64,000 nt of DNA from an uncultured Sphaerobacteraceae bacterium (GTDB lineage: Bacteria; Chloroflexota; Chloroflexia; Thermomicrobiales; UBA6265): the NCBI GenBank assembly GCA_964434995.1, contig CAYSXO010000001.1, positions 14,900 to 78,899 on the forward strand, in the 5' to 3' direction. Under the pieces are notes generated by a model. The model was not told the DNA's origin. It did no database searches and saw nothing but the letters and a program-made list of their open reading frames with translations. The stretch's first letter is position 1. Each line of letters starts with the position of its first letter. Below are positions 49,073 through 61,490 of the stretch, in pieces. Both the position numbers and the translations under genes were made by a program.

Positions 49073-51976
49073 TCAGAATTCATCGGCGGCATCCTCCAGG
49101 GCATCGTCCAGATCGTCCGTAGCCTGATCTGGCAAGAGATACATGGAACATACCTTGCGCACCCCCTGGAGCTCTATCTTGTGCGCCTTCGCCCACACCC
49201 GGACGGCTTGATTAGCTAGCCGTTCGACCTTCGCGGCCGGTACAGGAGCGCGCGCCTCATCCTCCGGGCATGCCAGCAAGTCCAAGACCTCAAGGTCGTC
49301 CTTGTCTTCAAGCTGGCGCAGTGAAGCGTTATACACAATAGGGAATAGCTGGTCGTCCACGCGAACGAGCACATAAACCAGACGGTGATCGTTCGGAGAG
49401 CGCCGAGCGCTTTGAAGATTGTCCTGGAGAGCGAGTGCGCGTTCGCGATGCTGCTCCAACACGGCGGTATGGGTAATCGAGGGCGTTACCGGAATGCCGC
49501 CCAGGTCATTGAGGATGTCGGTATCGCGTATGAGCACGTCCACATCGCGCTCATCATCGAGGGAGACTACCTGCTCGGGAGAATCGGTCAGGATGGGTGA
49601 GCCGAGGATTTGTTTGGAACGCTCATGGCGCCGGGTGGCTCGGCGAAAGACGTCCTGGATAATTCGGTTAATGGCACCAGGTTCCGGATGGTCAATTACG
49701 GAAGGAACCATGGTATAGAGGTGAATGACCCGAAACGGATCGGCCGTCATGCGCAGGATACGTCCGGCGCGCTGGAAGAGACGGTCAGCACCTTCGGGTG
49801 GGTCATAATTGACGATGGTGTCAGCGTCTTGCAGGTTGACCCCAATGCCGTCGGCATCCGAGCAAATGAGGACATCGAATTCCTGCTCCCACATGATCAG
49901 GTCGTGGGACCGCGGGGAAAAGCTCTTGAGGATCTGCTGGCGCTCGTGACTGGGCTTAAGCTTGGGGGCATCGCCCGGCTCAACGGTACAGCCGATGCGT
50001 AGGGCGGGCAGGCTGTGACCAATCGCCTGGATCAAGTAGGTGGCAGTGTTGTACAGACCGACAAAGATGATGACTTTGCCCCCATCCCGGCAGTGCTGAC
50101 GCAAGATCGCCAACAGCTTTGCTAGTTTGTCGTCCTGCTTGTAGCCCATATCTGCCAGGCGCTGGGCCAAGGGTTGTAGCACCGGCAAGCGCTCGGCGGC
50201 GGTGAGCTTCAGAGGAGTCTCGAAGCGATGGCTGGTGCCTGTCCGACGGCGCTCTGATTGGCTGCGCCTGGCGCGCGGCACCTCACGAGGGGCGTTGCCC
50301 CAAAAGTCCTGGGCCATGCCCACTTCGGCGGGTTGGTCGGGATCGGGGGTCGAGAGGTTTTTCAACACACTCGCGCGAAAGGCGGGTGGTGAGCTAAGCC
50401 AGCTTGAAATAGCAGAATTGAACACGGTGTCAATCAGGCCTGGGCGGATTTCTCGGCTAGCGTCGTCGAAGTACTCCTGACGGAACTTGTTCTGCTGGTC
50501 AAAATAGCCATCCTGCAAGACGCCCTGCACCGCCTCCGCCTCGGGCAGGTCATAGCGCACAGCGGATAGGCGCAGCTTGTGAGGGAGGTAGCGCCGCTCC
50601 CCACCGAACTGGATGAAAGTTCGTCCGTTCTCGTCAACGTCGCCTCGCTGGCGGGCAATGTTCAAGACGTGGGGCAAGCCCAGGACGGTCACAACGTGCA
50701 AGCGCGCAAAGGCGTCAGCGTCTGGCGCCGTCCACGGACCATTGCGGGTGCCCAGGAGATTAATCACCGGCATTCGGTGCGGCAACAGATGCAACAAGCT
50801 ATCGAGATTCTGCAGGTTGGTACCATAGGCTGTGGCCGTGAGCAGGACCACCTTGGAGCCGCGCTCATTGGCGGCGGTGTTGATGCGGTCGAAGACCAGA
50901 CTGTGCTTGCGCTTGCGGCGGGCCATCAACTCGTTGCGGTACCAGTGCGCTTCGTCAATGATGATCGTGGTGTCCGAATCGGCCAGCGCCAATTGTCGAT
51001 CCAGGGCAGAGGCCTGGTGATGATCTTGCATGGCTTTTTTGAACAAGATGCTGTTGTTAAAGTGTTTGTAGTTCAGGTCGCGGCCGTCGCACTCGCCCTC
51101 CCAGTTGGTTTGAACTCCCTTGGGAGTAATCAGGATGAAGCGCCTGGCCTTGCCGGCGGCAACTAACCGGCTGGCGATTTCCGCGCCGATGACGGTCTTG
51201 CCCAGGCCGGTGGCGGCAACCACACAAGCCCCACCCCACTCACTAATCTGGCGAAGGGCTCGGGCGATGACGCCCTTCTGATAGTAGAGTGGCGGGTGCG
51301 CGCCCAAGCCGGTGCGAACATCGCGGTCGGGCAGGTCGTTGAGGGCCAACAGGGTCTTGAGATAGATGTCGAAGGGCTCGGCGAGCCGGAGCCAGCCTTC
51401 CAGGATCTGGATCAGTTTCTCGACCAGATCGGTGGCCTGGGTGAAGTAGTCCTCATACTGCTGGGTGAAGTAGGTGATTTGGTCTGGATCGCGAATGAGG
51501 GCGACTTGCTCAATGGAGACCATCAACCCCTGGCGCGAGAAGTTCGAGGACCCATGCCACATGGCTTTGTCATCAATGATGTAGAACTTGCAGTGGAAGG
51601 GCACCTCCATGGCCCGTGCATCCACAATCTTGAACTGGCCGGCGCGCAGCTTGCGCACCAGTTCGTCCACGGTTTGCCACAAGTCGGTGTCGCAGCGCTG
51701 CAGGTCTTCCCAGATCTCATCCAGAATCGCCTGGCGAACGTTGCGCCCGTCTTCCTTACCGACCAGGATGCGGAACTGCACCTCTTCCGCGATGTGTTTG
51801 CGGCCCAGCTTGTAGCCGCTGAGCGTGAAGTAGGCGCTGGCAATGCGAACGATTAGTTCAGCTTCGGGAAAGTACACCTTGACGAACTGATAGGGCGCTC
51901 GCGGGCCGACCCCCGACAGAGGCCGCCCGTCAGGGCCGAGGGGTAGGTCTAGTTTTGGATTGGGCGTTGCCATCAT
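49073..51976 (-). CDS. PLD-family (single HKD) nuclease domain fused to an SF2 (SNF2/ResIII-type DEAH) helicase with a ~230-aa C-terminal extension
   Basis: HKD motif: 'HCKFYIIDDKAMWHGSSNFS'. Helicase motifs: motif I 'AATGLGKT', motif II 'IIIDEAHWYRN', motif III 'LLTATAY', and motifs V/VI 'SDADGIGVNLQDADTIVNYDPPEGADRLFQRAGRILR'. The start is probably the ATGATG at 51976/51973, with AAGGGGG 8 nt upstream; the tracked ORF runs to 52021. Confidence 0.85.
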   Translation of the reverse strand: MMATPNPKLDLPLGPDGRPLSGVGPRAPYQFVKVYFPEAELIVRIASAYFTLSGYKLGRKHIAEEVQFRILVGKEDGRNVRQAILDEIWEDLQRCDTDLWQTVDELVRKLRAGQFKIVDARAMEVPFHCKFYIIDDKAMWHGSSNFSRQGLMVSIEQVALIRDPDQITYFTQQYEDYFTQATDLVEKLIQILEGWLRLAEPFDIYLKTLLALNDLPDRDVRTGLGAHPPLYYQKGVIARALRQISEWGGACVVAATGLGKTVIGAEIASRLVAAGKARRFILITPKGVQTNWEGECDGRDLNYKHFNNSILFKKAMQDHHQASALDRQLALADSDTTIIIDEAHWYRNELMARRKRKHSLVFDRINTAANERGSKVVLLTATAYGTNLQNLDSLLHLLPHRMPVINLLGTRNGPWTAPDADAFARLHVVTVLGLPHVLNIARQRGDVDENGRTFIQFGGERRYLPHKLRLSAVRYDLPEAEAVQGVLQDGYFDQQNKFRQEYFDDASREIRPGLIDTVFNSAISSWLSSPPAFRASVLKNLSTPDPDQPAEVGMAQDFWGNAPREVPRARRSQSERRRTGTSHRFETPLKLTAAERLPVLQPLAQRLADMGYKQDDKLAKLLAILRQHCRDGGKVIIFVGLYNTATYLIQAIGHSLPALRIGCTVEPGDAPKLKPSHERQQILKSFSPRSHDLIMWEQEFDVLICSDADGIGVNLQDADTIVNYDPPEGADRLFQRAGRILRMTADPFRVIHLYTMVPSVIDHPEPGAINRIIQDVFRRATRRHERSKQILGSPILTDSPEQVVSLDDERDVDVLIRDTDILNDLGGIPVTPSITHTAVLEQHRERALALQDNLQSARRSPNDHRLVYVLVRVDDQLFPIVYNASLRQLEDKDDLEVLDLLACPEDEARAPVPAAKVERLANQAVRVWAKAHKIELQGVRKVCSMYLLPDQATDDLDDALEDAADEF

Positions 51977-52252
51977 ACGCAGCCCCCTTGTGGAAACGGC
52001 ACCCCGCAGGGCGAAGTCCATATTCTAGCCCGACGCAGGATGGAGTGAAAGCGCGGAAGGATTACATAAGCGCTGCCGCCGATGGCGACGACAGCGGGCC
52101 TGGCTGGCGTGAGCGGGTATATAATCGGTTCCAAGACGCTCATCATCCAGACAAGCGCGGTCTGCGCCAGGGGCAACCTAGCCACGAGCCTTTCACCCGG
52201 GCCGTTCGCGCAACGATACGCGGGCGGCCCGGTTTGTTTGCGATTGGAGCAC

Positions 52253-53887
52253 ATGGCAAAGCGAGCACCGTATAAGACGGGGGCATCCCCCACCAAGGGC
52301 AAGCGTGGGGCGAAAGCCAAAGGCAACGGCGCCAACCTGGGCTTCGAGGAGAAGCTGTGGCAGGCGGCGGATAAGCTGCGCGGCCACCTGGACCCGGCCG
52401 AGTATAAGCACGTGGTGCTGGGTTTGGTCTTCCTCAAATACATCTCCGACGCCTTCGAGGAGCGCCGTACGTGGCTCCTTCGCGAAGCCGCCGACCCCGC
52501 CAGCGCCTACTACATCAAGGACGAGGCCGGGCGCTACGAAGCCGCCGAAGAGCGCGACGAGTACACCGCCGAGAATATCTTCTGGGTGCCGGTGAAGGCG
52601 CGCTGGCCGTACATTCAAGACCGCGCCAAACAGCCCGACATCGGCAAGGTCATTGACGACGCCATGCTCGCCATCGAGAAGGACAATCCCAGCCTCAAGG
52701 GCGTGCTCACCAAGGACTATGCCCGCCCCGCCCTCGACAAGCAGCGGCTGGGCGAGCTAATTGACCTGGTGGGCACCATCGGCCTGGGCGACAAGGAGAG
52801 CCGCGCCAAGGACGTGCTGGGCCGCGTGTATGAATACTTCCTGGGCCGCTTTGCCAGCGCCGAGGGCAAGGGCGGTGGCGAGTTCTACACGCCGCAGTCG
52901 GTTGTGCGCCTGCTGGTGGAGATGCTGGAACCTTACAAGGGCCGCGTCTACGACCCCTGCTGCGGCTCCGGCGGCATGTTCGTCCAGTCCGAGAAGTTCG
53001 TCCTTGCCCACGGCGGCCGCATCGGCGACCTCGCCATCTACGGGCAGGAGAGCAACCCCACCACCTGGCGGCTGGCGAAGATGAACCTCGCCATCCGCGC
53101 CATTGACGGCAACTTGGGCCGCGAGAACGCCGACAGCTTCCACCGCGACCTGCACCCCGACCTGCGCGCCGACTTCATCCTCGCCAACCCGCCCTTCAAC
53201 GTCAGCGACTGGGGCGGCGACCGCGTGCGCGACGATGTGCGCTGGCAGTTTGGCGCGCCGCCGGCCGGCAACGCCAACTTCGCTTGGGTGCAGCACATGG
53301 TCCACCACCTCGCCCCCGGCGGCGTGGCCGGCTTCGTCCTCGCCAACGGCTCCATGTCCTCCAACACCAGCGGCGAGGGCGACATCCGCCAGCGCCTGGT
53401 TGAAGCGGATTTAGTGGACTGCATGGTGGCCCTGCCCGGCCAGCTTTTCTACACCACCCAGATCCCCGTCTGCCTGTGGTTCTTGGCCCGCAACAAGTCA
53501 AACGGTAAGTTCCGCGACCGGCGCAGGGAGACCCTGTTCGTTGACGCCCGCAAGCTCGGCCACCTGGTGGACCGCACCCACCGCGAGCTATCCGACGCCG
53601 ACCTCGCCCGCATCACCGCCGCCTACCACGCCTGGCGCGGGGAGAAGGAAGCCGGTGACTACGCTGATGTGCCCGGCTTCTGCAAGAGCACCGCTACCAA
53701 CGAGATCGCCGCCCACGGCTACGTTCTCACTCCTGGGCGCTATGTGGGCGCCGAAGAAGCCGAAGACGACGGCGAGCCATTCGAAGCGAAGTTATCCAGG
53801 TTGACCGCGAAGCTAGAAGAACAATTCGCCGAATCATCGAGGCTGCAGGAACTGATTAGAGCTTCACTCGCACAATTGAAGAAATGA
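52253..53887 (+). CDS. hsdM: Type I restriction-modification system, N6-adenine DNA methyltransferase subunit
   Basis: The ATG at 52253 (GGAG upstream) gives '[36 protein letters not shown]', the HsdM N-terminal domain. Motifs: '[10 protein letters not shown]', motif I '[12 protein letters not shown]', motif IV 'ILANPPFN'. Confidence 0.95.
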
Positions 53888-53888
53888 T

Positions 53889-55280
53889 ATGCAATCGGAC
53901 CAGGATAGTGTGACCTTACAATCGAACTGGGAAGTTCGCACAGCAGGTGAAGTGTGCGACTTCATAGTTGACTGTATACACGACACCCCAGACCTCTCAA
54001 CTGAGGACACCGGGTACTACATGATCCGCACCTCAGATGTTGGCAATGGGCATATTGAATTAGACACTGCCCGCTGGGTAACTAGGGAAACTTACGACTT
54101 TCGAATACGGCGAGGCGTGCCCAGGTGGGGCGACATCATATTGTCGCGGGAGGCTCCACTTGGAAATGTAGGACAAATCTTGGATGACAAGCCTATTTGC
54201 CTTGGGCAACGCCTAATACACTTTCGACCCGATGAAAGAATTGTTGATGCCCGATTCTTGCTCTATGCCTTTTTGAGCCCGCAAGTTCAACATGAACTCC
54301 ACTCTCATGGTGGAACTGGCTCAGTTGTCGACAACTTGAGAATGCAACATGCACGCGAGTTAAAGCTGCCAATCCCGCCGCTTGATGTACAGAAACGCAT
54401 CGCTGACATTCTTGGCTCTCTCGACGACAAAATCGCCCTCAACCGCCGCCTCAACGCCACCCTCGAAGCCCTCGCCCGCGCCCTGTTCAAATCCTGGTTC
54501 GTGGACTTTGACCCCGTGCGCGCCAAGGCCGCTGGCCGCCAGCCGGCAGGGATGGACGCGGCGACGGCGGCGCTGTTCCCGGATGGCTTTGAAGAAACAG
54601 AGATAGGCGAGGTGCCGCGAGGATGGTCTGCATTGGTCACAAATGACATTGCAGAGTTCGTTTTGGGCGGTGATTGGGGCGTTGATTCCAATGAGGACGG
54701 ATTGCTGGTTCCGACCTTGTGCATTCGTGGAGCAGATATTCCAGACCTGCAATCAGGCGGTACTGGAAAGATGCCTACTCGCTACTTAAGCGAATCGAGT
54801 CTAAACAGACGCCGCCTGCAGCCCGGTGATTTGGTGATTGAAATATCAGGCGGTAGCCCGACACAATCAACAGGACGGCCAGTTTTCATATCGGCCAACC
54901 TCTTGCAGCGAGTATCATTGCCGATCGTGTGCTCTAACTTTTGTCGCATGTTTCGACCAAAACACGCGCGATATTCCCAATTTCTGTACTTATGGTTGCG
55001 CTGGCTTTACACGAGTGGAGATTTCTTCCAGTACGAAAACGGCACGACTGGCATAAAGAATCTTGCATTCTCAACGTTTTGCCAGATTCATCCAGTGGTC
55101 ATGCCCGCAGATTCAGTACTCGATGCCTTCAACAAGACTGTTTCACCGCTGCTCAATATGATTCAAACGAATGGTGCTCAATCGAGAACCCTCGCAAATA
55201 CGAGGGATGTTCTGCTGCCGAGGCTGATGAGCGGAGCAGTATACATTCGACCAGCTCGCCTGGCAGATGGAGGATCGTAA
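53889..55280 (+). CDS. hsdS: Type I restriction-modification system, specificity subunit (two target-recognition domains)
   Basis: The start lies 1 nt after the hsdM stop. The central conserved helix is 'QKRIADILGSLDDKIALNRRLNATLEALARALFKSWFVDFDPV' and the C-terminal conserved region is 'LANTRDVLLPRLMSGAV'. Two variable TRDs of lower GC flank the high-GC conserved core. Confidence 0.9.
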   Translation: MQSDQDSVTLQSNWEVRTAGEVCDFIVDCIHDTPDLSTEDTGYYMIRTSDVGNGHIELDTARWVTRETYDFRIRRGVPRWGDIILSREAPLGNVGQILDDKPICLGQRLIHFRPDERIVDARFLLYAFLSPQVQHELHSHGGTGSVVDNLRMQHARELKLPIPPLDVQKRIADILGSLDDKIALNRRLNATLEALARALFKSWFVDFDPVRAKAAGRQPAGMDAATAALFPDGFEETEIGEVPRGWSALVTNDIAEFVLGGDWGVDSNEDGLLVPTLCIRGADIPDLQSGGTGKMPTRYLSESSLNRRRLQPGDLVIEISGGSPTQSTGRPVFISANLLQRVSLPIVCSNFCRMFRPKHARYSQFLYLWLRWLYTSGDFFQYENGTTGIKNLAFSTFCQIHPVVMPADSVLDAFNKTVSPLLNMIQTNGAQSRTLANTRDVLLPRLMSGAVYIRPARLADGGS

Positions 55281-55283
55281 GAG

Positions 55284-56114
55284 GTGCTTGCTAATAATCC
55301 GGCCCTTGTCTGGCTGAGCGACCCAGCAAATGTACAGGGACTACTGCCGAGCAAAATTCGACTGGACAAACTCTTGGCGCACGGTGGCCAGGGTGTCGTT
55401 CATCAAGGCTGGGTCAGCCAAGAAAATGCTGCGATCAAAATCTACCTTCCAGGACAGTTACATACGCGAATCGAACGCGAGGTGGATGCACTACGGAAGA
55501 TTATCTCGCCCAGTGTGGTCAAGTTGCTATGGTATGGGTCGATTCCATATGGGACGTATCAACTACCCGTTGTTGCCACTTCGCTCGTTCCCGGAGAGCC
55601 GCTTACAGCGATGATTGCACGCGGAGCAATCTCACACTCGACGATGGATCATATCGCGTTTGATATTGCCGATGCGATTGATTCGATCTGGCAACACCGT
55701 ATCGTTCACCGGGATATTAAGCCAAGTAACATTCTTGTTCAACCTAACGGCCAAGCCTGTGTTATCGATCTTGGTATTGCCCGCCACCTAGACAAGTCAA
55801 CTTTGACGGCGCTCGGGTTTACGGGAGGCACCGTAGGTTATCTGTCGCCTGAGCAGTGTAAAGCTGCGCGGAGTTTGACGTGCAAATCTGATGTTTACGC
55901 ATTGGGAGTCATTCTCCTTGAGTGCGCCATGGGGCGCCACCCTACCAATCTCGATCAGCAACAGCTAGTCAACAGCAAGTTTCATCTTTCATTGCCTTTG
56001 GAAGCTCGTCAATGGAACCATGCCCGGTTGCTTCGGGACATGCTGCATGAAAACCCAGCGAACCGACCAAAGCCTCGCCGGATCAAACAAGTCTTGAGTC
56101 AGAACTCGCCTTAG
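55284..56114 (+). CDS. Stand-alone Hanks-type (eukaryotic-like) Ser/Thr protein kinase, catalytic domain only
   Basis: The GTG start lies 3 nt after the hsdS TAA. Subdomains can be read off directly: Gly-rich 'HGGQGVV', 'AAIKIY' (Lys), 'EREVDALRKI' (alphaC Glu), 'HRDIKPSNIL', 'DLG' (a DFG variant), 'GTVGYLSPE', 'SDVYALGVILLE' and 'NPANRP'. There is no extra domain (276 aa). Confidence 0.85.
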   Translation: MLANNPALVWLSDPANVQGLLPSKIRLDKLLAHGGQGVVHQGWVSQENAAIKIYLPGQLHTRIEREVDALRKIISPSVVKLLWYGSIPYGTYQLPVVATSLVPGEPLTAMIARGAISHSTMDHIAFDIADAIDSIWQHRIVHRDIKPSNILVQPNGQACVIDLGIARHLDKSTLTALGFTGGTVGYLSPEQCKAARSLTCKSDVYALGVILLECAMGRHPTNLDQQQLVNSKFHLSLPLEARQWNHARLLRDMLHENPANRPKPRRIKQVLSQNSP

Positions 56115-56131
56115 TCTTGTCAGGAGGGGAA

Positions 56132-57448
56132 ATGACCTTCATAGCGAACTTGGGTTACACCTTTGGACTTCCTCAGAGCGTCAACCTCGATACTAGCATC
56201 CTTGCTAGTAGCACGATGCCGTCCTTTCAACTTCAACGACGAAAACTGGGCAAATATCCGTACCTTAAACATCGTATGTTCGATCCGCAGTTGTACTTGG
56301 CTGGGCTAGATGCTGCGGAAAGCCCCAAGCACTGCACATACCTCGCAAGTTATCCCTGGTTCGGCGTCAGGAACTTGCCTGAGTATGACAGCGAGATTCA
56401 GAAGCAGAAGGACTGGAACGACGAAATAAAGTCAAAGATTGCGGCTGTTTGGCCCAGGCACTCCCCAAACACTCCTGGTGAGATAGACGTCTTTAGCCGC
56501 GATTGTGTTACTTTTCAAGATCGGCTTGGATGTGACCAAATCATTCTTCCTAGCCCGCTGAGTACTGATGTGAACTCTGACTATAGTGAGGAATTGGCGT
56601 GGTTGGATGCTGGACTGGACTATGTGGAGTATCTGAGGACAGCGCATGGCCTCAGTGCCCCCGTTCTCTCGACCTTAGCGTTGGCTGACGTGTGTCTGCG
56701 CTATCTGGCCCCTAGCTCTAACAGTTTTCTCGATCTCATAGTGGACAATATCAGTGCCCGAGATGTGGACGGGGTGTATATCGTTGTCGAGCAGGGTTCG
56801 GAGACTGCAATGGAGCGCCAGTGCGGCAATACTTGGGTGCTTCAATCCATCCTTCACTTAGTACACGAGTTCGCGGTTAACGCCAAGATTAAGGTTGTTG
56901 TGAACTATTTGGGAATGTTTGGGTTGGTCTGCGAAGCGGCGGGGGCAAGTGCGTGGGCGAGTAATTGGTACAAGAGCCTATATCGGCTTCGACTTGCTGA
57001 CAAATTGGCCGGCGGGCGCGTATACCCGTCTTTTTGGAGTCACAGTTCGGCGGCCGACATTCACATGGATACTGAGTTCGACCGTATTGTAAGCGGCGGA
57101 GGACTGAACTTAATAGCAGATCGGACAATTGCTTCTTCCGGTCTCCTAGAAGCGGCCAGGCAGAACCGCAAAGCCGCTGAGATTCCTGCTTGGCAGTATC
57201 GCCAAGGCAATGGCGAAGCCGCCCGGGAGCACTTCTTATTGTCTGCGATAAATGCAGAACGAGAACATTCAGGATTCGATGGTCAGCAACGGAGGGATTA
57301 CGTTCATCAGTGGTTAACACAAGCAGTGAAGAACTCAGCAGCAGTCGCGCGCATCCTGGGCACTGAACCTCCCCCCAGGACACAGGTTCAACACGTTCAG
57401 GCGTGGCTTACAGCATTTGAGGGATACCGTCGGGACCATAATTGCTGA
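56132..57448 (+). CDS. 438-aa protein of unknown function (no motif recognised), co-operonic with the kinase
   Basis: The ATG at 56132 lies behind a strong RBS AGGAGGGG (56122-56129), 17 nt after the kinase stop. The ORF is long and uninterrupted in a low-GC segment where random ORFs are unlikely. Alternating hydrophobic strand-like segments ('RMFDPQLYL', 'DQIILPSPL', 'GVYIVVEQ', 'IKVVVNYLG') suggest an alpha/beta fold. Confidence 0.7.
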   Translation: MTFIANLGYTFGLPQSVNLDTSILASSTMPSFQLQRRKLGKYPYLKHRMFDPQLYLAGLDAAESPKHCTYLASYPWFGVRNLPEYDSEIQKQKDWNDEIKSKIAAVWPRHSPNTPGEIDVFSRDCVTFQDRLGCDQIILPSPLSTDVNSDYSEELAWLDAGLDYVEYLRTAHGLSAPVLSTLALADVCLRYLAPSSNSFLDLIVDNISARDVDGVYIVVEQGSETAMERQCGNTWVLQSILHLVHEFAVNAKIKVVVNYLGMFGLVCEAAGASAWASNWYKSLYRLRLADKLAGGRVYPSFWSHSSAADIHMDTEFDRIVSGGGLNLIADRTIASSGLLEAARQNRKAAEIPAWQYRQGNGEAAREHFLLSAINAEREHSGFDGQQRRDYVHQWLTQAVKNSAAVARILGTEPPPRTQVQHVQAWLTAFEGYRRDHNC

Positions 57449-58158
57449 CGGCCAACCGTAATTGATGAAGCGATCAGATACTCACGATCAGGGCTAGAGA
57501 CATCAAATTGACGTTTAGGTTCAACAAGCCACTCGACTCTGTCTCTTTGAGTCGCACATAACCCAACTCCGCTGTCTTCAAACTGGCGGAGCATCATTGT
57601 GCTAACTCGTATTCGAGTTGCATCCATAGCAACAAACGCACTGTCCGAAAAGCGCAGATATGAAATCGCTTGATGCAATGCGGCGCGCCATTTGCTTAAC
57701 TTGGCTTCTACTGCTACTACATCTGCCCCAACGGCAGCCATCCCAGCGCTCAACCTGAGCCTATTCGAGTCGCAGAGCTCAATAGCTCCGCACTTCTGAA
57801 GATCAAACAGTATGGGTTCGACACGTTCTATTGGTTCATGGAAGCGAGCAGCAAGGGCCACACTATCAAGGGGATTCTGACGCAATAGCCATATTACAAA
57901 TGCGTGTCGGTAAGTTAGGCGGGCAGGCCACAGGCTTGGGTCAGGCTCATTATCAAAACACACATATATGAAGTCTGGAATGTGGGATCCTACCGGTACT
58001 TCCCTCTTATAGATTACATTTCTGTGTTTGGTTGGTAGGATCAGGTCTAGTCGGGCCAGAGTAGACTGAAGTTCCCTTTCGTTGACGAATGCGGTGGCTA
58101 CCATCGATGAGGACGAATCCATCCGGCCTGCGCATTTTCGTTGACGACTCGGAATCAT
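57397..58158 (-). CDS. Hypothetical protein with a wHTH-like middle segment and a PD-(D/E)xK-nuclease-like motif
   Basis: 253-aa ORF in low-GC DNA, convergent with the orphan gene. 'IPDFIYV' and 'GADVVAVEAKLSKWRAALHQA' resemble D...(D/E)xK nuclease cores. 'LDSVALAARFHEPIERVEPILFDLQKCGAIEL' looks like a winged helix. The functional call is tentative and the start could be 58158, 58122 or 58104. Confidence 0.45.
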   Translation of the reverse strand: MIPSRQRKCAGRMDSSSSMVATAFVNERELQSTLARLDLILPTKHRNVIYKREVPVGSHIPDFIYVCFDNEPDPSLWPARLTYRHAFVIWLLRQNPLDSVALAARFHEPIERVEPILFDLQKCGAIELCDSNRLRLSAGMAAVGADVVAVEAKLSKWRAALHQAISYLRFSDSAFVAMDATRIRVSTMMLRQFEDSGVGLCATQRDRVEWLVEPKRQFDVSSPDREYLIASSITVGRQQLWSRRYPSNAVSHA

Positions 58159-58237
58159 ACTATCCGCCCGATCTTGGCCACTACAAAACGACGATTACAA
58201 GAAACTCAGGGGGATTTGGACTGCCGACTTCGCAACA

Positions 58238-58285
58238 AGATAATAGAACATATTATCTACTTTGTCAACTCAAATCTACTTGAGT
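58238..58285. promoter_or_regulatory. Two short inverted repeats in the AT-rich divergent region upstream of hsdR: AGATAAT-N7-ATTATCT (58238-58258) and ACTCAA-N6-TTGAGT (58268-58285)
   Basis: Read directly. They lie between the start of the minus-strand wHTH/nuclease-like gene (58158) and the putative hsdR promoter, so they are candidate operator sites. Confidence 0.3.
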
Positions 58286-58321
58286 CATTCGGCACAATCA
58301 AAGTAACTCAGATTTCGCTAC

Positions 58322-58350
58322 TTGGCAACAATTCATGTCCAGATTATAAC
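58322..58350 (+). promoter_or_regulatory. Putative hsdR promoter TTGGCA-N17-TATAAC
   Basis: The -35 element TTGGCA is at 58322-58327 and the -10 element TATAAC is at 58345-58350, with an exact 17-nt spacer. The -10 ends 24 nt upstream of the hsdR ATG (58374). Confidence 0.45.
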
Positions 58351-58373
58351 CATTCTCTAATGTCTAGCTTGAG

Positions 58374-61300
58374 ATGACCACCTCTTTCACTGAGTCTCTC
58401 GTTGAACAGGCCGGCCTCGATTGGCTCGCCGAGTTAGGCTACCAGGTCGCCCACGGCCCCGCCCTCGCCCACGGCGAGCCCGCCGCCGAGCGCGCCAGCT
58501 TCGGTGACGTCGTCCTCGTTGACCGCCTCCACGCCGCCCTCGCGCGTCTCAACTCCGCCCTCCCCGCCGAAGCCCGCGACGACGCCCTCCGCCAGGCCCT
58601 CGCCGCCCCCTGCCCCAGCCTGCTCGAAAACAACCGCCGCTTCCACCGCCTGCTCGTGGAGGGCGTGGACGTCGAAGTCCGCCGCGCCGATGGCGCCCCC
58701 GCCCACGACAAGGCCTGGCTGGTGGATTTCGCTCACCCCGCCCGCAACGAATGGCTGGCCGTCAACCAGTTCGTCGTCAAGGAAGGGCGCCGTGAGCGCC
58801 GGCCCGACGTCGTCCTGTTCGTCAACGGCCTCCCCTTGGTCGTCATCGAGCTCAAGAACGCCGCCGATGAGGACGCCACCGTGCGCGGCGCGTTCAAACA
58901 GCTTCAGACCTACAAGGCCGAGATTCCGGCCCTGCTCCACTACAACGCCGTCCTCATCGCCTCCGATGGCGTCGAGGCGCGGGCCGGGTCGCTCACCGCC
59001 GACTGGGAGCGCTTCATGCCCTGGCGGACCGTGGATGGCGAGACCGTCGCCCCGCGTGGCAGCCTTCAGCTCGAAACCCTGCTGCGCGGCCTGTGCGCCC
59101 CCGCCCGCCTGCTCGATCTGGTCCAGCACTTCATCACCTTCGACGCCACCGGCCCCACCCTCGCCAAGAAGCTGGCCGGTTACCACCAGTACCACGCCGT
59201 CAACAAGGCGCTGGAAACCACCCTGCGCGCCGCCGCGGTGGAGGGCGACCGCCGCGCCGGCGTCATCTGGCACACGCAGGGCAGCGGCAAGAGCCTCACC
59301 ATGGCTTTCTACGCCGGCAAGCTCATCCGCGCCCTCGATAACCCCACCCTGGTCGTCCTCACCGACCGCAACGACCTCGACCAGCAGCTTTTCGATACCT
59401 TCGCCGCCAATCAGGACCTCCTCCGCCAGTCCCCCGTCCAGGCCGAGGACCGCGGCCAGTTGCGCGAGCTGCTCCAGCGCGCCTCGGGCGGCGTCGTCTT
59501 CACCACGGTGCAGAAGTTCCTGCCCGCCCCCGGCGAGGCCTATCCGCTGCTGTCTGAGCGCCGCAACATCGTCGTCATCGCCGACGAGGCCCACCGCAGC
59601 CAATACGGCTTTGCCGCCCGCGTCGTCGTGCCCAAGGGCCAGCCCCACGAGGCCGAAGGCGCCTACCTCGCCTACGGCTTCGCCAAGCACCTGCGCGATG
59701 CGCTGCCCAACGCCAGCTTCATCGGCTTCACCGGCACCCCGGTCGAGCTGAACGACCGCAGCACGCGGCAGGTATTTGGGGACGAGATTGACGTTTACGA
59801 CCTCCAGCGCGCGGTCGAAGACGGCGCGACGGTGCGCATCTACTATGAGGGGCGGCTGGCGCGGCTGGCGCTGGACGAGGCCGAGCGCCCGCACCTCGAC
59901 CCCGAGTTTGAAGAGGTGACCGAAGGCGAAGAGACTACAGCCAAGGAAGAGCTCAAAACCCGCTGGGCGCGGCTGGAAGCCCTCGTCGGCGCGGAGAAGC
60001 GCGTCAATCTGCTGGCCGCCGACCTGGTAGCGCATTTCGAGAAGCGGCGCGAGGCGCTCTCCGGCAAGGGCATGCTCGTCGCCATGAGCCGCCGCATCTG
60101 CGTGGACCTCTACAACGCCATCGTCAAGCTGCGGCCCGACTGGCACGACGATGACGACAAAAAGGGCTTCCTCAAGGTCGTCATGACCGGCTCCGCCGCC
60201 GACGGCCCCGACTGGCAGCCCCACATCCGCAGCAAGTCCCGCCGCCGCGCCCTGGCCGACCGCTTCAAGGACCCCGCCGATCCCCTCACCCTCGTCATCG
60301 TCCGCGACATGTGGCTCACCGGCTTCGACGCCCCCAGCCTGCACACCATGTACGTGGACAAGCCCATGCGCGGCCACGGCCTCATGCAGGCCATCGCCCG
60401 CGTCAACCGCGTCTTCCGCGACAAGCCCGGCGGCCTCATCGTGGACTATCTCGGCCTCGCCCACGAGCTCAGAGCCGCCCTGGCCGTCTACACCCAGGCC
60501 GACCGCGACCAGGCCGGGGTGCCGCAGACCCAGGCTGTCGAGCTGCTGCTCGAAAAGTTCGAGATCGTCGCCGCCCTCTTCCACGGCCTCGACTACTCGC
60601 GCTTCACCACCGGCACCCCCGCCGAGCGCCTGGCCCTCATCCCCGCCGGCATGGAGCACATCCTCGCCCAGCCCGAGGGCAAGACCCGCCTCCTGCAGGC
60701 TGCGTCCGATCTCGCCAAGGCCTTTGCCCTGGCCGTCCCGCACGAAACCGCCCTCGCCCTGCGCGACGAGATCGGCTACTTCCAGGCCGTCCGCGCCGCA
60801 CTCGCCAAAGCCACCGCGCCCGATGGCCGTACCACCGAGGACTTCGACACCGCCCTGCGCCAGCTTGTCTCGCGCGCCGTCGTCTCGAACCAAATTGTGG
60901 ATATCTTCGCCGCTGCCGGCCTCAAAACGCCCGACATCTCCATCCTCTCCGACGAGTTCCTGGCCGAGGTCAAGGCCCTTCCGCAGCGCAACCTCGCCCT
61001 TGAGCTCCTCCGAAAGCTGCTCGACGACGCCATCCGCGCCCGCGCCCGTACCAACGTTGTCCAGGCCCGCTCCTTCGCCGCCCTGCTGGAGCAGACCATC
61101 CACGCCTATCAGAACCGTTCTCTCGAAGCCGCCCAGGTCATCGCCGAGCTGATCGAGCTGGCGCGGCAGTTCAACCTCGCCGCCCATCGCGGCGAAGACC
61201 TCGGACTCACCGAAGCTGAGCTGGCCTTCTACGACGCCCTCGGCGTCAACGACAGCGCCGTCCAGGTCCTCGGCAACGAGACCCTGCGCGCCATCGCCCA

Positions 61301-61490
61301 GGAGCTGGTGCAGACGGTGCGCAGCAACGTGACGATTGATTGGAGCGTGAAGGAGAGCGTGCGCGCCAACCTGCGGCGTCTCGTGCGGCGCGTCCTCCGC
61401 AAACACGGCTACCCGCCCGACAAGCAGGAGCAAGCCACCATCACCGTACTGGAGCAGGCCGAACTTATTGCGAAGGATTGGGCGGAGTAG
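58374..61490 (+). CDS. hsdR: Type I restriction enzyme, restriction (R) subunit
   Basis: 1038-aa ORF. It has an N-terminal PD-(D/E)xK nuclease ('[20 protein letters not shown]'), helicase motif I '[11 protein letters not shown]', motif II '[12 protein letters not shown]', 'GFTGTP', and motif VI '[32 protein letters not shown]'. The helical C-terminal domain is typical of HsdR. Confidence 0.95.

Follow-up and report, generated by a model that had tools for sequence, protein, structure and literature searches.

A minimal Hanks-type kinase, a TIM-barrel protein and a predicted nuclease form a candidate defence cassette within a Chloroflexota Type I restriction-modification locus

The window, a stretch of 64,000 nucleotides (nt) from an uncultured Sphaerobacteraceae bacterium of the Chloroflexota (assembly GCA_964434995.1, contig CAYSXO010000001.1, positions 14,900 to 78,899 of the forward strand), carries a gene for a small Hanks-type Ser/Thr protein kinase directly downstream of hsdS in a Type I restriction-modification (R-M) locus. 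An earlier note on this DNA had tied the kinase to the methyltransferase and specificity subunits HsdM and HsdS. We found that the kinase is real and unusual, and that it had been tied to the wrong partners: its constant companions are the next two genes, which encode a 438-amino-acid (aa) protein with a predicted triosephosphate isomerase (TIM) barrel and a predicted nuclease. We refer to the three genes as the triad and regard it as a candidate new defence cassette. Its genes and the candidate promoter of the third lie at the following window positions:

55284 to 56114, plus strand: gene 1, stand-alone Hanks-type Ser/Thr protein kinase (RD type, DLG variant), 276 aa, assigned by Pfam Pkinase, a family alignment and a family hidden Markov model (HMM)
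56132 to 57448, plus strand: gene 2, 438-aa TIM-barrel protein, start ATG 56132 with AGGAGG at 56122-56127, alternative start TTG 56117
57397 to 58158, minus strand: gene 3, predicted PD-(D/E)xK nuclease of RecB/Cas4 type with an inserted winged helix, open reading frame (ORF) of 253 aa, assigned by motifs and AlphaFold2 fold
58238 to 58268, minus strand: candidate promoter of gene 3, TTGACA-17-TATTAT, 11 of 12 consensus matches, from a consensus scan

Loci with the triad were gathered through the TIM protein, 30 from species-representative genomes (by a 30-sequence alignment) and 56 from metagenomes, together with contigs holding kinase homologues. At 97% identity, 78 of the resulting 97 loci were distinct, and 45 of the 78 had room for all three genes. 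Kinase, TIM and nuclease genes were all present in 43 of these 45; the two exceptions were a pseudogenised copy (L035) and a locus with no kinase (L043). The main gene order was kinase and TIM in one direction with the nuclease convergent; most loci of this order had an overlap of 16-58 nt between the 3' ends of the TIM and nuclease genes. A second order, nuclease, kinase and TIM all co-directional, occurred in 13 distinct loci. The gap between kinase and TIM genes was 3-36 nt in the eight loci checked. Moreover, the three proteins have diverged together: pairwise distance matrices from 28 loci were correlated with r = 0.92-0.95, and none of 999 permutations reached so high a value. Named genome bins with the triad came from nine phyla in a patchy distribution, namely Lentisphaerae, Calditrichota, Gemmatimonadota, Chloroflexota, Bacteroidota (Rhodothermales), Desulfobacterota, Planctomycetota, Acidobacteriota and Myxococcota. 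The cultured Pyxidicoccus caerfyrddinensis (GCA_010894405.1, JAAIYA010000001.1, about 249.6-252.6 kilobases (kb); L099 8001-10901) also carries an intact triad (275, 432 and 236 aa), flanked by the genes of an acyl-CoA dehydrogenase and of a DNA polymerase III alpha-subunit (PHP domain).

The association with R-M genes was much looser. Queries for the search of the flanks were two sets of Type I proteins and one of Type III, so that the count is a lower bound. R-M homologues were found near 11 of the 47 distinct loci with at least 6 kb of flank and near none of the other 36. The arrangements were as follows:

The window, Type I: M-S-[triad]-R
L013, Type I: truncated hsdM-[triad]
L014, Type I: R-S-PrrC-M-[triad]-integrase
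L048, Type I: [triad]-M-S-R
L081, Type I: R-[triad]
L011, L039 and L041, Type III: mod-res-[triad]
L070, L071 and L084, mod-like methyltransferase: methyltransferase on the opposite strand

Among the loci surveyed, the window alone had the triad between hsdS and hsdR. In most loci the kinase had its own upstream region of 120-900 nt; junctions of less than 20 nt to the upstream gene were seen only in the window (hsdS, 3 nt) and in L039 and L041 (Type III res, 10-17 nt). The 3-nt hsdS junction is a local feature of the window genome, and the triad is thus a free-standing unit, often but not necessarily beside ATP-dependent R-M operons. The earlier note had proposed stoichiometric co-expression with the HsdM and HsdS genes and a kinase that watches over the M2S complex or is restrained by it. 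The defence context stands, and the kinase is probably co-transcribed with hsdMS here, but its constant partners are the TIM protein and the nuclease rather than HsdM and HsdS. The M2S proposal finds no support in a triad that keeps its genes together in nearly every locus and sits beside Type I genes, Type III genes or neither, in varied geometries. Nevertheless, a recurrent, facultative link to ATP-dependent R-M remains.

Many defence genes and mobile elements lie in the surroundings of the triad. Its neighbours included Type I and Type III R-M genes, PrrC, a phospholipase D (PLD)-helicase gene (L009), BREX genes, MazE/PIN and PemK toxin-antitoxin pairs, HipA and integrases. In L014 (1920-13225), an EcoR124-type Type I locus holds a bona fide PrrC (PADLOC 7e-142) between hsdS and hsdM, and the triad and a tyrosine integrase follow directly. 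In L004 (2446-9513), a Hanks kinase fused to a Type IIG methyltransferase/restriction module (1640 aa in all) lies directly 5' of the triad and is followed by an OLD/AriA-like ATPase; the fusion is a second, unrelated kinase-based defence beside the triad.

Several copies were decaying. In L005 and L017 (Candidatus Leptofilum) the TIM gene is split and a DDE transposase separates it from the kinase gene, and L035 has no kinase and a TIM gene broken into four pieces. L098 (Polyangium mundeleinium) has a frameshifted TIM gene about 2 kb from a BrxC/PglX BREX cluster. The DNA 5' of the triad without a kinase (L043 3545-4849) consists of tandem repeats, one frame of which reads as the repeated peptide FGNETAGSRRSQRDRGRW.

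Turning to the proteins, the kinase ORF starts with GTG at 55284, 3 nt past the hsdS TAA (55278-55280), as the earlier note had said, and GGAGG at 55269-55273 lies 10 nt 5' of it. Its homologues formed a tight family of stand-alone proteins, mostly of 270-285 aa, with 40-55% identity to the query and 97-100% query coverage, and these lengths and coverages fit the GTG start. Every kinase motif quoted in that note is present in the translation: HGGQGVV (residues 33-39), AAIK (49-52), HRDIKPSN (142-149), DLG in place of DFG (162-164), GTVGYLSPE (182-190), SDVYALG (202-208) and NPANRP (257-262). The Pfam Pkinase match (E = 8.2e-31; 107.8 bits against a cut-off of 31.7) spans residues 29-269 of 276, too much of the protein for a sensor, transmembrane or repeat domain to fit as well, which confirms a further point of the note. 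All Hanks-type hallmarks were found: the Gly-rich loop, the VAIK Lys, the alphaC Glu, HRDxKxxN, the DFG Asp, GTxxYxAPE, the subdomain IX Asp and the XI Arg. In the alignment of 148 family members, G34, K52, E66, H142-R143-D144, N149, D162, G164, T183 and S188-P189-E190 were invariant or nearly so, and T175 of the activation loop was also kept. Since 144 of the 148 have Leu in DLG, this motif characterises the family and is not a lesion, the enzyme being under purifying selection; SPE at the GTxxYxAPE position is likewise a family variant. Judged from these residues, the kinase is apparently an active enzyme of minimal Hanks type, with the invariant T175 and T183 of the activation loop as candidate phosphorylation sites. 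On the family HMM the window kinase scored 404 bits and the family kinases at least 212, against 116 for the kinase domain of Mycobacterium tuberculosis PknB. The expectation that this kinase differs from the usual bacterial eukaryotic-like Ser/Thr kinases was therefore borne out by its membership in a dedicated family.

The TIM gene starts 17 nt past the kinase stop codon. Its 438-aa product had no family in Pfam, NCBIfam or PADLOC and no informative one in PHROG. An AlphaFold2 model from a 106-sequence alignment (predicted local distance difference test (pLDDT) 97.5, predicted template-modelling (TM) score 0.95) was an alpha/beta barrel with a C-terminal helical bundle. Its relatives are 430-445 aa long, and at E <= 1e-3 the family took in 658 of 1.84 billion cluster representatives. 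D51, Q53, Y55, P142, L143, Y216, E220, G261, R285, P299, W354 and W425 are invariant in the family; D51-P-Q53-L-Y55, P142-L143, Y216 and E220 lie at or just past predicted strands, and many near-invariant Trp, Tyr, Asp and Glu residues occur besides R285, W354 and W425. From this pattern alone we infer a resemblance to glycosyl-bond enzymes. A Foldseek search with the model found nothing in the PDB at E < 1e-3. The most consistent match was tRNA-guanine transglycosylase (TGT), with TM-scores of 0.47 (query) and 0.55 (target), probability 1.0, E of about 5e-3 and a root-mean-square deviation of about 8 A. Barrels of this kind can work on DNA in defence islands, as DpdA does. TGT is the best structural match in barrel topology, but an identity with TGT/DpdA found no support in sequence: hhalign against E. 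coli Tgt gave a probability of 0.2%, no Pfam match (TGT included) appeared at E <= 10 and the PDB profile search was empty. The family also has no counterpart of the zinc-binding cysteines of TGT (CxCxxC...H), as it contains no Cys cluster and C68 is its sole near-invariant Cys. In the model, the likeness to TGT is at the level of the fold only. Adenosine deaminase had a slightly better Foldseek E than TGT, but its TM-score was only 0.25-0.3. Amidohydrolases carry a His-rich metal site, and none was evident among the conserved residues. Among viral structures, Foldseek gave no match below E = 1e-2. A 1193-aa fusion protein (P0270) with autotransporter PATR repeats was probably an artefact and was uninformative.

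The nuclease gene overlaps the TIM gene convergently by 52 nt at its 3' end, and its true start is likely the ATG at 58104 or 58122. The 253-aa protein had no Pfam, NCBIfam, PADLOC or informative PHROG match, and in homology searches its family was more divergent than those of the kinase and the TIM protein. Eleven homologues shared the invariant residues E27, P61-D62, E151-x-K153 and Q163-x-x-x-Y167. The AlphaFold2 model (pLDDT 85) has a restriction-endonuclease-like core of alpha-beta-beta-[winged helix]-beta-alpha-beta, with E27 in helix 1, P61-D62 in strand 2, E151 and K153 in strand 3 and QxxxY in the next helix. Strands 2 and 3 are separated by an inserted winged helix of three helices and a hairpin (residues about 83-136). 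Foldseek matched the structural-genomics protein 3dnx (E = 8e-4) and many MarR/DtxR winged helices, and the PDB profile search gave weak MarR matches in the winged-helix segment. By its motifs and predicted fold, we read this protein as a RecB/Cas4-type PD-(D/E)xK nuclease with a built-in DNA-binding domain. It resembles RecB, Cas4 and lambda exonuclease in the E...PD...ExK...QxxxY series on an alpha-beta-beta-beta-alpha-beta core; it differs from them in the winged-helix insertion of about 80 residues and has no Fe-S cysteine cluster, helicase partner or family-model match.

A palindrome, AGATAATA-gaaca-TATTATCT (58238-58258), overlaps the -10 element and spacer of the candidate promoter of this gene, and 5 of 200 shuffles gave one equally good. 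L005 holds a related palindrome, TATTAGAAC-TTAT-GTTCTAATA. Palindromes 5' of the nuclease gene were significant in some loci only and not in most, which makes the idea of an operator for the winged helix of the nuclease weak, if possible.

The host locus of the triad and its surroundings comprise the following features:

52082 to 53887, plus strand: hsdM, 601-aa ORF (Pfam N6_Mtase 3e-105 and HsdM_N; PADLOC MTase_I 1e-233)
53889 to 55280, plus strand: hsdS, 463 aa, intact, directly 5' of the kinase gene (Pfam Methylase_S; PADLOC Specificity_I 7e-87, residues 37-454)
58374 to 61490, plus strand: hsdR, 1038 aa, intact, parted from hsdMS by the triad (PADLOC REase_I over the full length, E = 0; Pfam HSDR_N, SWI2_SNF2 and T1RH-like_C)
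53850 to 58400, no strand: block of low guanine-cytosine (GC) content over hsdS, the triad and the hsdR upstream region, from composition profiles
49073 to 52021, minus strand: PLD (HKD) and SNF2-helicase gene, 982 aa, divergent from hsdM (Pfam, PADLOC, NCBIfam)

The hsdM, hsdS and hsdR genes are all full length by Pfam and PADLOC. The block at about 53,850-58,400 has 47-55% GC against 65-74% in hsdM and hsdR, and both of its edges are sharp. Within it, hsdS is a mosaic: the target-recognition domains and the C-terminal part have about 47-55% GC, while the central conserved region (54,400-54,650) has a host-like 65%. From the second hsdS recognition domain through to the start of hsdR the GC content is uniformly low. 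By this profile the triad and the target-recognition domains of hsdS look imported, and a single recombination event may have brought in both the triad and the distal half of hsdS. Repeats at the ends of the cassette or flanking it were searched for and not found, and no Rfam RNA occurred within the island.

The first 57 or so residues of the hsdM ORF have no homology, and HsdM_N begins at residue 89. A GC-rich hairpin followed by a T-run (52197-52232) lies within this non-homologous 5' part, and the true start of hsdM is probably the ATG near 52253 (MAKRAPYK). The Type I locus lies in a small defence island beside the PLD-SNF2 gene. The product of that gene had weak matches to the PADLOC 'HKD+Snf2' model C3a139 (4e-16), DpdE and DrmD, and its NCBIfam phospholipD_antiphage match (3e-20) was far under the cut-off; the gene is probably a single-gene defence in its own right. 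In L009, a related 1205-aa PLD_Helicase/PbeA-like gene lies 3' of the triad. Beyond the island the genes are ordinary (ABC peptide transporter, glycosyltransferase, phytoene synthase).

Hanks-type kinases occur in several described defence systems. The window kinase matched the PADLOC models mad6 (6e-42) and PD-T4-6 (2.3e-41), but the kinase domain of the housekeeping PknB scored far higher on both (7e-85 and 7.1e-171). These matches are therefore generic and give no evidence of membership. Its NCBIfam PknB match was also far under the cut-off. PD-T4-6 of E. coli and Stk2 of Staphylococcus epidermidis are single-gene anti-phage systems. The window kinase shares with them a Hanks-type Ser/Thr kinase core without a membrane sensor, whereas its gene comes with those of a TIM protein and a nuclease, and it was not assigned to PD-T4-6. 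Membership in MADS was rejected as well: NCBIfam MAD6 (NF047741) gave 110.7 bits against a cut-off of 460 over the kinase domain only, the other mad genes are absent, and for HsdM and HsdS the Type I models gave far stronger matches than mad2 and mad5 did (MTase_I 1e-233 against mad2 1e-48). For BREX type 2/Pgl, PglW (NF033442) gave 41 bits against a cut-off of 990, and no PglX, PglY or PglZ candidate was found among the seven island proteins scanned. The kinase gene shares a defence locus with that of a DNA methyltransferase, as do the genes of MAD6 and PglW, and Pgl is the classical defence that combines a Hanks kinase with a methyltransferase (PMC4365076). However, the MAD6 and PglW models have about 610-1390 positions (about 610-660 for MAD6), so that these proteins are multi-domain, and the window kinase is a bare domain without other mad or pgl genes. 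In the literature we found no description of a kinase, TIM-barrel and nuclease system, though coverage was incomplete and a prior description is possible.

Based on its gene content, distribution and contexts, we hypothesize that the triad is an autonomous, horizontally mobile kinase-TIM-nuclease cassette, an independent module against phages or mobile elements that is stacked here on an R-M operon; we hold this to have somewhat better than an even chance. The cassette would have come in along with low-GC DNA and landed in an intact Type I locus, where hsdS and hsdR meet. The kinase and the TIM protein, from tightly coupled genes, would form a sensing or switching part, and the nuclease, from its own, probably self-repressed promoter, would be the DNA-cutting effector. 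Ser/Thr phosphorylation would gate either the nuclease or the TIM-barrel enzyme. Read-through from hsdMS would add to the expression of kinase and TIM protein in this genome, giving layered defence rather than surveillance of M2S. This particular wiring, in which the kinase acts with the TIM enzyme to gate a DNA-cutting effector by phosphorylation, is doubtful even on a generous estimate. A fuller version, in which the TIM protein is a hitherto undescribed nucleic-acid glycosyl-bond enzyme (a glycosylase or base exchanger) of a new kind of phosphorylation-gated immune system that docks preferentially on ATP-dependent Type I and Type III R-M operons and fires as a back-up when phage anti-restriction proteins block the translocating complexes, strikes us as quite improbable.

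Several observations weigh against a defence cassette of this kind. Many triads lie among housekeeping genes, and the count of defence neighbours is a plain tally of what lies nearby. The TIM protein had no tblastn match among plasmids and phages, and a scan of viral contigs found none. The triad contains no phosphatase or obvious sensor domain, and the place given to the TIM protein in the mechanism is a guess. Tight fusion to the kinase start, seen with R-M genes only, leaves room for a functional tie to R-M.

Such a tie is the core of the nearest alternative, a guard that resembles PrrC. The prrC gene has its place between hsdS and hsdR in the EcoprrI locus. Its product, PrrC, combines an ABC ATPase and an anticodon nuclease in one protein, is nearly always hsd-linked and is held by the R-M complex. 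By analogy, the kinase and its partners would be kept inactive by M2S or R2M2S and would fire when a phage anti-restriction protein disables the complex. The likeness to PrrC in this Type Ic system lies in an extra defence gene between hsdS and hsdR, co-expressed as a second defence layer. The 3-nt junction, the R-M genes near 11 of 47 loci, the restriction of junctions of 3-17 nt to R-M genes and the presence of a true PrrC and a triad in one Type I locus (L014) all agree with it. On the other hand, the triad consists of three unrelated proteins, and the linkage to R-M is not obligate: 36 of the 47 loci had no R-M homologue nearby, with detection of R-M as a lower bound. The R-M partners, where present, were of two unrelated types in at least six geometries (upstream, downstream, opposite strand, truncated hsdM and hsdR only among them), the three genes co-diverge with each other, and most loci have their own upstream region. 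We regard a guard function as quite improbable. A second alternative starts from the TIM barrel, which as a DpdA/TGT-like base-exchange or other DNA-modifying enzyme would mark self, with the nuclease cutting unmarked DNA and the kinase regulating or energising the pair. TGT as the best consistent structural match and the many invariant aromatic and carboxylate residues of the barrel point in this direction. Many Type II R-M systems are laid out as a convergent, 3'-overlapping gene pair, which the TIM gene and the gene of the DNA-binding nuclease resemble. This reading appears improbable in view of the poor Foldseek E and deviation, the hhalign result against Tgt, the missing zinc-site cysteines, the absence of 7-deazaguanine synthesis genes from the cassette and the 13 distinct loci with all three genes co-directional.

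The triad might also have no immune role, as a selfish addiction module of the toxin-antitoxin kind or as a stress-regulatory unit whose winged-helix protein serves chiefly as a kinase-controlled transcription factor. The candidate promoter of the nuclease gene with its overlapping palindrome suits such a role, and so do the nearby integrases and transposases, the decaying copies (L005, L035 and L098) and the many housekeeping neighbours. Kinases are known as antitoxins from type VII toxin-antitoxin systems. A kinase-controlled repressor also has a precedent in CapK-CapS, where the kinase phosphorylates a DNA-binding protein encoded beside it and thereby switches an adjacent immune function (PMC13373217). 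However, CapK belongs to the anti-sigma-factor-type (GHKL) kinases and CapS is a repressor with a STAS domain (PMC13373217), whereas the triad kinase is of Hanks type and the DNA binder is a predicted winged helix within a nuclease fold. The catalytic residues of the nuclease are invariant, which is unexpected for a pure regulator; modules of the toxin-antitoxin kind are compatible with defence, and defence-gene neighbours are numerous. We consider a non-immune role rather unlikely.

If the triad is a defence system, as we suppose, current catalogues have missed a conserved three-enzyme architecture, in which two of the three proteins have no Pfam, NCBIfam or PADLOC family and one of these is a confidently folded TIM barrel. 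For annotation, PADLOC matches of bare kinase domains to PD-T4-6 or mad6 should not be taken as membership in those systems. If the triad does act in defence, it would offer a clean case for how a minimal Hanks kinase without a sensor is switched during infection, and it could reveal what draws such modules again and again to R-M operons of Type I and Type III.

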